Source: a phage
Length of the DNA: 64,000 bases
Direction: 5' to 3' (one strand)
Sequence record: PX393109.1
In this document: positions 54,549 to 56,632 of the stretch, piece by piece
How the letters are laid out: each line of letters begins with the position of its first letter
How positions within the stretch are numbered: position 1 is the stretch's first letter
Translations under genes and position numbers: made by a program
The notes under the pieces: generated by a model
What the model was told of the DNA's origin: nothing
Seen by the model: only the letters and a program-made list of their open reading frames with translations
Database searches by the model: none

Positions 54549-54552
54549 TTAC

Positions 54553-54595
54553 GCCGCTCTTTTGTACGGTCGAAAGGCTGTTAAAGTGTTCGAAG
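54553..54595 (+). promoter_or_regulatory. conserved intergenic motif copy 8
   Basis: GCCGCTCTTTTGTACGGTCGAAAGGCTGTTAAAGTGTTCGAAG. Confidence 0.5.
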
Positions 54596-54682
54596 TGCCA
54601 ATTCCGGCTTATCTAACTAAGAAGGTATATCGTATGTAACGGTTAATCACTTAGAGAAGAAGATAAAACTTAGGAATCGTTT

Positions 54683-54726
54683 CGCTCCCTATTTCCCATC
54701 ATCACAGTGCTCGGTGATAGGGAGCG
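54683..54726 (+). promoter_or_regulatory. long imperfect hairpin
   Basis: CGCTCCCTAT...ATAGGGAGCG 10-bp outer stem with inner ATCAC/GTGAT stem. Confidence 0.4.
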
Positions 54727-54735
54727 GGCAACTTA

Positions 54736-54773
54736 ACACTCTTTTGATGACTCGAAAGGCTGTTAAATTGTCA
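54736..54773 (+). promoter_or_regulatory. conserved intergenic motif copy 9
   Basis: ACACTCTTTTGATGACTCGAAAGGCTGTTAAATTGTCA; a terminator lies ~25 nt downstream. Confidence 0.45.
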
Positions 54774-54797
54774 TAAGTTGTTCATGGGATCCGTGGG

Positions 54798-54827
54798 ACC
54801 GACTGCTAGCGTACCAGTCGGTTTTTC
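54798..54827 (+). terminator. rho-independent terminator
   Basis: ACCGACTG/CAGTCGGT stem, 9-nt loop, followed by TTTTT. Confidence 0.65.
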
Positions 54828-55167
54828 GGTGGTCTGCAGTGCTTGAGTCTGTAAGGTATGAGTGGGACTCAAATTAAAAATAAACTAAACCGTATCAGCT
54901 GTCGGGACTCCTTACCCAGAGACAGTCGTATCCGAGGCCATACGAGAATGGCAAAGTAGGAAGCTATATGGGACTATCAATCCCGGATTTGGCGTATGGC
55001 TCTTCCTACCTCCTCAGGACAGGTTGACTGAGGGCTACAAGCCTATGTGATACCAGCCAATGGCGTTACGCGGTTGGCGAGATCGGCTTAATCGCCGATT
55101 GGTAATCTGGCGCGACGAACGGCGTCCCTGTAACAGTAAGCAGGATAATATTTCTCAGGAGAGTACG

Positions 55168-55269
55168 ATGATTAATCCAATAGTCGTTGCTATATTCTTC
55201 GTATTATATGTAGCCAACGCAATTTATGTAGATGGTTGGGACAGTATTATATTAGCTTTCAATAGCTGA
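55168..55269 (+). CDS. candidate 33-aa hydrophobic peptide
   Basis: MINPIVVAIFFVLYVANAIYVDGWDSIILAFNS, ATG preceded by CAGGAGAG; inside the RNA island. Confidence 0.25.
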   Translation: MINPIVVAIFFVLYVANAIYVDGWDSIILAFNS

Positions 55270-55275
55270 TTTTAT

Positions 55276-55343
55276 GATGACCTCTTAGTTCACGTTAACT
55301 ACACTCCATGTAGCTTTTCGCGATGGTAAGCTAAGAGGTCATC
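55276..55343 (+). promoter_or_regulatory. 13-bp perfect inverted repeat hairpin with ~42-nt loop
   Basis: GATGACCTCTTAG ... CTAAGAGGTCATC. Confidence 0.45.
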
Positions 55344-55359
55344 CTAAAATGGAGGATTT

Positions 55360-55563
55360 ATGGAAACTACTTTTCATAAGCTAAGAAGTATTGTTAATGA
55401 AGCTAAATGTCCAGAATGTGGAGGTTTAGGAGAGTGTGACGATGCTGAGCCTGGTGATATCTTCTGTCGGACTTGGGTCTGCGGGGAGTGTCACGGAACA
55501 GGCATGAATAAATCTGTTAAGCAGGTAGAAGAATTAATAAGCTCCCTTAGCTCAGCTGGATAG
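55360..55563 (+). CDS. small zinc-ribbon protein (overlaps 5' end of tRNA-Arg)
   Basis: CPECGG...CGECHGTG; GGAGG RBS; the last 8 codons are the tRNA 5' arm. Confidence 0.35.
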   Translation: METTFHKLRSIVNEAKCPECGGLGECDDAEPGDIFCRTWVCGECHGTGMNKSVKQVEELISSLSSAG

Positions 55564-55617
55564 AGCAGTAGCCTTCTAAGCTATTGGTCACAGGTTCGAA
55601 TCCTGTAGGGAGTACCA
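55541..55617 (+). tRNA. tRNA-Arg (anticodon UCU)
   Basis: cloverleaf traced by hand: acceptor GCTCCCT/AGGGAGT, D-arm GCTC/GAGC, anticodon loop CTTCTAA, T-arm ACAGG-TTCGAAT-CCTGT, encoded CCA. Confidence 0.85.
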
Positions 55618-55649
55618 CCTTAACGGGATCTCCACATTTTTGGATACGT

Positions 55650-55718
55650 CCCCATTATCACATGTACCGGAGCAGGGTAGTCACGGCTGTCTGGATGGCT
55701 TAGGCCATGATAATGGGG
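55650..55718 (+). ncRNA. tRNA-sized structured element between the two tRNAs (degenerate tRNA or processing element?)
   Basis: 11-bp perfect terminal stem CCCCATTATCA/TGATAATGGGG enclosing internal hairpin ATGGC-TTAG-GCCAT. Confidence 0.3.
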
Positions 55719-55762
55719 AGTTTGGCAAATCCTCTAGTGTGGGCCACGGTCCCGACCAGTTC

Positions 55763-55838
55763 GGCCCATTAGCTCAGTGGTGAGAGCAGTCGACTCATAA
55801 TCGATTGGTCACTGGTTCGAAACCAGTATGGGCCACCA
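55763..55838 (+). tRNA. tRNA-Met (anticodon CAU; could be a lysidine-modified Ile reader)
   Basis: acceptor GGCCCAT/ATGGGCC, D-arm GCTC/GAGC, anticodon loop CTCATAA, T-arm CTGG-TTCGAAA-CCAG, encoded CCA. Confidence 0.85.
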
Positions 55839-55967
55839 TCTTTAAATGGTCACCGGGAACTAATAATCCGAGTGTACTGAAACGGTCTGGTATGATGCCT
55901 AAGACCTGGAACGATCTGTGTTGACCCGAACGGATGGCAGCTAAGTGGAATAATCGGGTCCCTAATT

Positions 55968-56004
55968 ACGCTCTTTTGATGAATCGAAAGGCTGTTAAAT
56001 TGCA
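55968..56004 (+). promoter_or_regulatory. conserved intergenic motif copy 10
   Basis: ACGCTCTTTTGATGAATCGAAAGGCTGTTAAATTGCA; immediately upstream of structured element B. Confidence 0.45.
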
Positions 56005-56069
56005 GTACGCTCCATACACTACGGTCCGTCGTAGATGCCAGATTATTCGGATATGACTTAAGCTAAGTC

Positions 56070-56490
56070 CCGAAGCGGTCTGGGAGGAGTGACATTAAGA
56101 AGGTAGTTTGGGTATTTACCCTAATCGGCGCTTCCTGGTTGAGCAGAGATGAATGCATAGTCTCACCGATCGGCCTATCTTCGAATACGGACATAAATCC
56201 TAATGTAGCTTATTGGCGCGGAGTGCCTAGTCCCTGGCTTCGCCAATGTTAGGTTGGATATGACTGGTAGCGGATGCTTACTAGCCATCTCCAGGGGACT
56301 TAGTGTAGCTATCGCCTGCGTATCGCGTAGCAGAACGAGGTAAAGCCCGAAGTGGCTTTAGAGAGTGATGCAGGGGTAGGCTCGGGTGGTCGCAGGCGCT
56401 CATCCGGTAGGATTGGTGAAGCGGAGGTCGCGCCGCCTCAAGCGGGCGCGACTCCTTCGCTCTCTACTTTGACTAATTGGGATAAAGGTG
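56070..56490 (+). ncRNA. candidate large structured RNA element, copy B (paralogue of 2870-3270); 5' leader of glycosyltransferase gene
   Basis: ~620 bp ORF-free; shares TCTGGGA(A/G)GAG, TGCGT..CGCGTAG, TAAAGCCC(A/G)AAGTGGCTTTAG, AGGCTCGGGTGG, GATAA(A)GG with copy A at conserved spacing; compensatory GC hairpin (CGCGCCGC/GCGGGCGCG). Confidence 0.4.
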
Positions 56491-56632
56491 TTACTCCGCT
56501 CTTTCGCTAAGCCTCTGTACTCCTCGAGTACGCTTCCCTTAGCATAGGTAAGAGGTAACTAATAAGTATTTATTTACTAATTTACTCTATTAGGTCCCTA
56601 TCCAGTTTAAAATAAATAACATAGAGGTAACT

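Follow-up and report, generated by a model that had tools for sequence, protein, structure and literature searches.

What does a phage genome hold in two kilobases that contain almost no protein genes? The question is raised by positions 54549-56632 of sequence record PX393109.1, a 64,000-nucleotide (nt) stretch of phage DNA that is here called the window. At 2084 nt this island is the largest of four stretches of at least 350 nt in the window that lack an ATG-initiated open reading frame (ORF) of at least 90 amino acids (aa), bearing out the coding-poor gap described in an earlier sequence-only reading of the DNA. Our answer is that the island is probably a stable-RNA locus of an IME392-like lytic coliphage, served by phage-specific promoters and giving rise to trans-acting RNAs, designated A and B, the latter with a paralog (B2) elsewhere in the window. 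The elements listed below with window coordinates are on its + strand.

Full-length matches to the island region were found only in two Escherichia phages, vB_EcoM_IME392 (here IME392; 116 kb; L001) and EP_H11 (111 kb; L002 and L049), at 85-91% identity; the remaining 267 matching phage records align to a transfer RNA (tRNA) gene, tRNA-Arg, alone. No RNA gene is annotated at this locus in IME392 or EP_H11. Four further close relatives were recovered from public assemblies (L003, L008, L043, which is a 113-kb ENA contig, and L044). The order of elements in the relatives is constant: promoter-like copy P1, hairpin I2, promoter-like copy P2, RNA A, a variable segment, the trailer of a tRNA-Ile2 gene, promoter-like copy P3, and RNA B.

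RNA A (54775-55150) is a multi-helix element of ~370 nt. A hand-curated alignment of six genomes gave a model of 13 local helices and 80 pairs, the first helix at 54795-54825 and the last at 55127-55144, in which 97.4% of cells are paired and 12 pairs carry compensatory changes; when partners were slid by 1-3 columns only 0-3 compensatory pairs were left. None of 500 shuffled alignments scored as high on four of the five measures, the count of further pair types being the one not above shuffles (131/500). In the relatives stems are altered on both sides and loops stay constant. The nested stem GTAGGAAG...CTTCCTAC, which had been glimpsed within 54900-55060, is present as a hypervariable stem at 54956-55010, where GUAGGAAGCUAUA.../...UAUGGCUCUUCCUAC of the window and L008 becomes GAGAUCGUACUCU.../...AGAGAGUAUCUGAUCUU in IME392, L003, EP_H11, and L043, the two versions sharing the tip GGGACUAUCAAUCCC. 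Its many conserved G-U pairs place RNA A on the + strand. In L043, RNA A is followed directly by a further structured element (C) and a tRNA with no ORF between, and RNA A is therefore not simply a leader.

The first helix of RNA A had been taken for a terminator at 54798-54827. The hairpin itself stands, with two compensatory pairs and a TTTTT run behind it; its reading as a terminator fares less well, as the U5 run present in the window, L008, EP_H11, and L043 is UUCAU in IME392 and L003. A promoter copy lies ~25 nt upstream, and we take the hairpin more readily for the conserved opening helix of RNA A than for a terminator. A terminator scan missed it because its 11-nt loop exceeds 8 nt.

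Element C (55624-55758) is a predicted rod-shaped RNA of 135 nt located between tRNA-Arg and tRNA-Ile2. It is closed by a 7-base-pair (bp) acceptor-like stem, CGGGAUC/GGUCCCG, followed by ACCA, so that it ends as a tRNA does, with acceptor stem, discriminator base, and CCA in the usual arrangement. The "tRNA-sized" stem noted previously at 55650-55718 is a perfect 12-bp stem (55649-55719) forming the middle of the element. A homolog with a 76%-identical core (blastn) occurs in the Kuttervirus SenALZ1 (L054), a Salmonella phage of an unrelated family, where it lies between tRNA-Asn and tRNA-Tyr in a cluster of five tRNAs; element C is therefore flanked by tRNAs in both phage groups. The terminal 7-bp stem of the SenALZ1 homolog reads GGGUUCG/CGAACCC and is again followed by ACCA, which is invariant. 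In a six-helix model with 44 pairs, 96.8% of cells pair and 13 pairs are compensatory, the acceptor-like stem contributing five of the 13, and none of 500 shuffles scored as high on any of the five measures; the fold energy z-score is -2.76. A blastn "distant" search of 50,697 phage records with element C matched only IME392, EP_H11, and SenALZ1-type phages, its core had no match in GTDB genomes, and its DNA pattern had none in IMG/VR.

Two observations beside element C deserve mention. The L043 copy has a run of ~16 G at about 6600-6620 where the others have GGGG, perhaps an assembly artefact or else a true homopolymer expansion within a stem. In SenALZ1, the spacer module next to the homolog (L054 2372-2486) also ends in ...GCACCCACCA and is 78-86% conserved in 222 phage records, apparently Ackermannviridae, infecting hosts that include Salmonella, Klebsiella, Dickeya, Escherichia, and Serratia; most of the matches coincide with no annotated feature. 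This module may be another unrecognised tRNA-cluster RNA.

RNA B (56003-56560) is a conserved non-coding block of ~560 nt with a 180-nt core at 56293-56472. Conservation in the early region is highest here, at 93-98% identity among relatives, compared with 66-95% for neighbouring early genes. Indels of 1 and 2 nt occur throughout it, which makes it non-coding, and neither A nor B qualifies as a protein gene, their longest ORFs being 33-52 aa. Its GC content is 55-57% against a background of ~44%. Its 3' tail (56547-56565) includes AAGAGGTAACTAATAAG, which nearly repeats AGAGGTAACTATGAG (56620-56637), where the downstream gene has its ribosome-binding site and start, but lacks the ATG.

A self-BLAST of the window uncovered a paralog of the B core, 56317-56389 matching 3111-3186 with 80% identity over 76 nt (E = 5e-12). 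This second non-coding block, B2 (2806-3345; core 3088-3271), sits between ORFs at 2544-2813 and 3343-3576, away from any tRNA and lacking a promoter motif of its own; conservation in IME392 and EP_H11 reaches 98-99%, and the fold z-score is -3.9. A covariance model of the B core found only B and B2, the latter scoring 177 bits. Between B and B2, and in L043, helices are changed on both sides (GCA/UGC versus GGG/CCC), an A-U versus G-C swap stands beside the invariant hairpin AAAGCC-CRAAGU-GGCUUU, and a long GC-rich hairpin has wholly different sequence in B and B2. The core model of 25 pairs has 99% of cells paired and seven compensatory pairs, compared with 0-2 in slid controls, although the compensatory count alone is not above shuffles (93/500). 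Two invariant motifs, AGGCUCGGGUGG and CAGGGG, fall in segments predicted to be single-stranded. B and B2 cannot be aligned in their 5' halves, and we use local helices only, claiming no global fold for B because whole-length RNAalifold predictions were unstable between runs. No third copy of the core was found in the window, in EP_H11 1-50 kb, or in distant relatives (nhmmer and covariance model); a 565-nt annotation gap of EP_H11 (42849-43414) contains none, and the core pattern had no matches in JGI metagenomes.

The genome comparisons thus show that the predicted base pairing of A, C, and B is kept by compensatory substitutions. This lends comparative support to the earlier suggestion that the non-tRNA structures may include further stable RNAs or tRNA-like molecules. 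We rely on comparison of related genomes, not on energy, as the evidence for structure because the energy z-scores are weak (-2.3 for 55839-56632 on either strand and -1.6 for 54770-55170).

The supposed phage-specific promoters are recognized by a motif, TCGAAAGGCTGTTAAA, that has 13 copies in the window, all on the + strand, where 0.46 would be expected by chance, and 10 additional copies in the rest (the other half) of the EP_H11 genome. The full consensus is CCGCTCTTT-N10-AAAGGCTGTTAAA-nTG, and most copies are followed, 20-40 nt further on, by an ORF that has a ribosome-binding site. The motif was not called as a sigma-70 promoter by a promoter scan, and we read it as the phage's own early or middle promoter. 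Four copies had been reported at the island, and four were recovered (54512, 54570, 54752, and 55984), that at 54512 falling just outside its start. They correspond to P0 (54496-54531), within the 3' end of a denV-like gene; P1 (54554-54589), kept in all relatives; P2 (54736-54770), which has structured RNA and no ORF with a ribosome-binding site downstream; and P3 (55968-56002), 94% identical to P2 and immediately upstream of RNA B. In JGI metagenomes the motif pattern gave four single matches, the chance level. Beyond the window, one EP_H11 protein (L049 29676-31244) carries the annotation DNA-directed RNA polymerase beta' subunit and may belong to the enzyme that recognizes the genome-wide promoter motif. 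Downstream of P1 a minimal ORF, ATG TAA (54634-54639), stands behind a strong AAGAAGG ribosome-binding site (54620-54640), and the sequence GAAGGnAyATCGTATGTAAC at this position is kept in all relatives.

Between RNA A and RNA B lie two tRNA genes. The first, at 55541-55617, is the AGA-reading tRNA-Arg(UCU) that had been predicted, with anticodon TCT by ARAGORN and 70.5 bits in Rfam, well above the gathering threshold of 29 bits for the tRNA family RF00005. Over 260 other phages have a tRNA-Arg that is ~85% identical to it, and many of these are 108-123 kb phages of Klebsiella. The second, at 55763-55838, had been called tRNA-Met(CAU). It is indeed a tRNA with a CAU anticodon (CAT by ARAGORN; 72.2 bits), whereas its body matches tRNA-Ile and not the assigned methionine identity: it has 87-88% identity across all 76 nt to annotated tRNA-Ile genes in all 5426 Escherichia coli genomes searched, and for this reason we identify it as most likely tRNA-Ile2, which would decode AUA after lysidine modification. 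Its 1-72 pair, read from the sequence, is G-C, unlike the C-A mismatch of initiators. It thus resembles the E. coli tRNA-Ile2 of the ileX/ileY type, differing in being phage-borne and diverged by 12-13%, with lysidine addition by the host TilS assumed. A Met label should not be the default for phage CAU tRNAs. No other part of the island matches the tRNA model in the Rfam scan, even at E <= 10.

The codons read by the two tRNAs are rare in the host. In phage ORFs AGA accounts for 19% of Arg codons and AUA for 16.5% of Ile codons, which sustains the proposal that the AGA-reading tRNA supplements rare codons; in 50 long window ORFs (16975 codons) the frequencies are 9.2 and 10.8 per thousand. 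E. coli K-12 uses AGA at near 2 and AUA at near 4-5 per thousand. AUA and AGA readers are paired likewise in the ileZ-argN-argO clusters of E. coli O157 prophages, annotated as tRNA-Ile and tRNA-Arg. Behind tRNA-Ile2 the trailer (55839-55960) contains two hairpins conserved in a three-genome alignment. In one of them (55923-55959) GACCCGA...TCGGGTC becomes GGCCCGA/TCGGGCC, both sides having changed together; the second is shorter in IME392, with its pairing kept.

The inverted repeats reported earlier were confirmed at 54683-54726, 55269-55350, and 55649-55719, the last being the middle stem of element C. The first is hairpin I2, a conserved structure with 19-nt arms between P1 and P2, in which the C-G pair at the stem base is A-U in EP_H11, a change on both sides. 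The second is hairpin I1, with 25-nt arms that are 88% complementary, joined to a small-ORF module. I1 folds with z = -5.67, none of 200 shuffles folding as well. The window, L001, L003, and L008 all have it; EP_H11 has a truncated copy, and L043 lacks it.

The stretch that separates A from B is a hot spot of module swapping in the genomes compared, with tRNAs, small ORFs, and small RNAs all varying. The window and L008 have a 33-aa ORF, hairpin I1, a 67-aa ORF, and tRNA-Arg; IME392 and L003 have the 33-aa ORF, I1, and a different tRNA-Arg; EP_H11 adds a tRNA-Gly(UCC) and an 85-nt tRNA-like gene; and L043 has only C, a module designated Y, and tRNA-Ile2. Module junctions fall at tRNA-like 3' ends, which suggests exchange through recombination at those ends.

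Several of the variable components in relatives are themselves structured. Module Y, an RNA of ~95 nt just upstream of tRNA-Ile2 and missing from the window, occurs at L001 5790-5890, L002 5896-5996, L043 6661-6761, and L008 1845-1950; in L008 its 12-bp closing stem is wholly different while the motifs GUCAUGCC, UUUAGC.AAAGAC, and GGUAAGGUACUCCA are kept. Tentative giant tRNA-like RNAs of ~175-190 nt (L008 2028-2215 and L001 about 5970-6150) end in ACCA and have a canonical T-arm (GGTTCGA) and a stem of the acceptor type, with ~110 nt in place of the D and anticodon arms, and are called by neither ARAGORN nor Rfam. L001 also carries a tRNA 3'-half fragment. The 85-nt gene of EP_H11 (L002 5307-5391), with an oversized anticodon/variable region, scores 52 bits against the Rfam tRNA model and was missed by ARAGORN.

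The two small ORFs of the segment had been dismissed as marginal; we disagree, as both look like real genes. The first (55168-55269) would encode a 33-aa hydrophobic, membrane-type peptide, MINPIVVAIFFVLYVANAIYVDGWDSIILAFNS, and lies 7 nt behind the ribosome-binding site AGGAG; substitutions in the L001 and L003 versions are conservative (I/L/V, D/E), and the ORF is missing from EP_H11 and L043. The second (55360-55563) would encode a 67-aa zinc-finger protein with two CxxCxGxG motifs that matches phrog_6060 (E = 1.6e-18; labelled "anti-termination protein Q-like") and weakly DnaJ_CXXCXGXG. Its final 23 nt overlap tRNA-Arg, and it is missing from L001, L003, and L043. Its DNA matches Providencia phage PR1 (vB_PreS_PR1), which has a member of the same family; here, by contrast, the module sits in an unrelated myovirus lineage and is missing from half of the close relatives. 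Together with the ~85% identity of the adjoining tRNA-Arg to those of Klebsiella phages, the PR1 match suggests that ORF and tRNA were transferred as a single module.

Are these RNAs members of a known family? A cmscan of the 4227 families of Rfam 15 at E <= 10, covering window 54400-56800, L001 4550-6970, and window 2600-3500, returned only tRNA and chance-level matches. Covariance models of GOLLD and ROOL did not match the island, its IME392 copy, or B2 at this cutoff, nor did group I or II intron or ribozyme models match the island or B2. In blastn against phage records A and B matched only IME392 and EP_H11, and A, B, and C showed no similarity to T4 rnaC/rnaD or to any T4-like record. E. 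coli genomes matched only the island tRNAs. Four informative DNA patterns (B, A, B/B2 core, and C) found no relatives in IMG/VR; a fifth gave 32 matches, all in an unrelated coding gene without stems, and was rejected.

There are precedents for such loci. RNAC and RNAD are transcripts of T4's tRNA region and have no known role (PMC3014915). Element C fits them best, being likewise a non-tRNA element flanked by tRNAs on the same strand of a lytic coliphage; in size, RNA A and RNA B surpass the T4 RNAs by a factor of three to four. GOLLD and ROOL are phage-borne RNAs without known function, often near tRNAs (PMC7567579), of ~600-800 nt, with many helices, and abundant during infection (PMC7567579; bioRxiv 10.1101/2024.12.08.627333). 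RNA A (~370 nt, 13 helices) and RNA B (~560 nt) are also phage-borne and flank tRNAs; they differ in that the host is a Gram-negative enterobacterium and the phage lytic, B2 is away from tRNAs, and the covariance models do not match. Long noncoding RNAs are known near the tRNAs of phage K (PMC9241854), as is an ~800-nt transcript of ICP1 (PMC7567579); these too are ORF-less blocks of 0.5-1 kb in lytic phages, where they are the most abundant transcripts. They are known from RNA sequencing without a structural or comparative model, the reverse of the island RNAs.

On the reading we prefer, polycistronic precursors would be transcribed rightward, starting ~7 nt after the TGTTAAA of P1, P2, and P3. 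Host ribonuclease P would cut the 5' ends of both tRNAs and of element C, whose coaxial terminal helices and ACCA would mimic the top half of a tRNA, so we infer that C is released by the tRNA-processing machinery; other host nucleases would trim at the long hairpins. The tRNAs would decode AGA and AUA, used several-fold more by the phage than by E. coli, and A, B, and B2 would accumulate as large folded trans-acting RNAs. Our best guess at their role, by analogy with T4 RNAC/RNAD, GOLLD, and ROOL, is that of a scaffold or decoy binding host or phage RNA-handling proteins.

Several points weigh against this reading. Besides the weak fold energies, the 5' and 3' ends of the RNAs, their processing, and their stability are deduced from the DNA. 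The comparison covers some six genomes, all close relatives, and for C a single distant homolog as well, and with genomes so few and close the compensatory changes trace to few independent events. Two of the alignments (A9 and A12) were fitted to the structure by hand, so that their percentages of paired cells are inflated. Searches of phage records, IMG/VR, and JGI and with a covariance model turned up no relative of A or B beyond the clade. B and B2 end just before an ORF with no terminator between, an arrangement that fits a cis-acting leader as well. This last point introduces the main rival for B and B2, that A, B, and B2 are not free RNAs and act in cis as leaders or intercistronic regulators, resembling riboswitches, thermosensors, or protein operators, with the 33-aa peptide (A), the 263-aa gene downstream of B, and ORF 3343-3576 (B2) as targets. 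B and B2 stop 70-100 nt before the ORF start with neither a promoter motif nor a convincing terminator between, B2 is promoterless and inside an operon, the 263-aa gene always follows B in the relatives, and 56549-56565 repeats the ribosome-binding region of that gene. The genes after B and B2 have, however, no obvious similarity by eye despite the shared core, leaders of 370-600 nt with at least 10 helices would be unusual for phage genes, and no cis-regulatory Rfam family is matched. For RNA A a leader role is unlikely, as A is kept in EP_H11 and L043 without the 33-aa ORF and only RNAs follow it in L043. Overall we consider cis action the less probable explanation, with something under a one-in-five standing, though the most serious of those weighed here.

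The other explanations seem to us considerably weaker. That the non-tRNA sequence is mostly non-functional, a mixture of decayed tRNAs, recombination scars, and ordinary terminators or stabilising hairpins, would suit the variation in tRNA complement among near-identical genomes, the fragments resembling tRNA 3' halves (T-arm and ACCA) in relatives, and the modest energy z-scores of A and B. It is improbable given that conservation in the early region peaks at B, that the pairing of A, C, and B is maintained by compensatory substitutions, that C is conserved between unrelated phage families, and that the B core exists in two copies each 98-99% conserved. Slightly less credible still is action as DNA, in which the conserved blocks would bind proteins through arrays of inverted repeats, mark a packaging site, or form a transcription-activated origin of replication. 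Inverted repeats are numerous, the divergent terminase gene is 2-4 kb from the island, and a promoter followed by non-coding DNA resembles the origins of T4 and T7. Conserved G-U pairs, on the other hand, would be A-C mismatches on the opposite strand, so that their abundance marks a strand-specific constraint at the RNA level; the blocks are GC-rich, unlike AT-rich unwinding elements, and C has a tRNA-like ACCA end and is flanked by tRNAs in another phage. Least plausible of all, and very improbable, is the view of B and B2 as mobile ribozymes, such as self-splicing introns without an ORF, an idea prompted by their size (530-600 nt), high degree of structure, presence in two copies, and the position of B2 between two small ORFs. 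Those ORFs are furnished with a stop codon, ribosome-binding site, and start codon of their own, B adjoins a promoter and not an exon, and no intron or ribozyme model matches at E <= 10.

The genes bordering the island are a denV-like pyrimidine-dimer glycosylase gene (54006-54548; phrog_624, E = 1e-38), with many homologs carrying PF03013, and the 263-aa gene after RNA B (56633-57424). The former was tried as a synteny marker and rejected, a 48% homolog being located in an unrelated phage. The 263-aa protein has no Pfam or PHROG match, and its homologs are confined to one 9-sequence cluster among 5.8 billion proteins; by eye, an N-terminal FQLWVG...P and YVDADT (DXD-like) are reminiscent of GT-A glycosyltransferases.

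The IME392-like lytic coliphage lineage is rare. Diverged relatives are present in the SRA runs SRR10902858, SRR15882663, SRR26903504, SRR33788027, and ERR4398703. It was not found in IMG/VR with the 263-aa and helicase proteins or DNA patterns as queries, or in JGI metagenomes with DNA patterns. By helicase, the next nearest phages are Ralstonia phage RP13 and Acinetobacter phage Ab1-TPeters (34-38% protein identity), which have no comparable locus, the syntenic place being filled with dense coding sequence; the contigs of two intermediate helicase relatives (L041 and L042; 79% and 52% identity) end before the island is reached. The DNA polymerase of IME392 resembles that of YerA41, and IME392 has been grouped with hypermodified-thymidine phages (PMC12686479).

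What is new here is a set of predicted, unannotated RNAs, two or three of them 370-600 nt long and one a tRNA-like RNA of 135 nt, in phages isolated on E. coli. More tentatively, and with somewhat less than even confidence, A and B/B2 could be new classes of large ornate trans-acting RNAs, counterparts of GOLLD and ROOL, and C a cross-family class of tRNA mimics and possible decoys. The best-studied carriers of GOLLD and ROOL are Lactobacillus prophages and uncultured rumen or lake organisms, and IME392 and EP_H11 offer a cultivable E. coli setting for large structured phage RNAs. If the proposal is right, the C class would have an acceptor stem and ACCA and no anticodon, would ride on tRNA processing, and may act as a decoy for tRNA-targeting host defences or tRNA-handling enzymes. 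The occurrence of C in a Kuttervirus, together with the spacer module in 222 Ackermannviridae records, suggests that phage tRNA clusters may generally hide non-tRNA RNAs with an acceptor stem and CCA at their ends that are missed by annotation pipelines.

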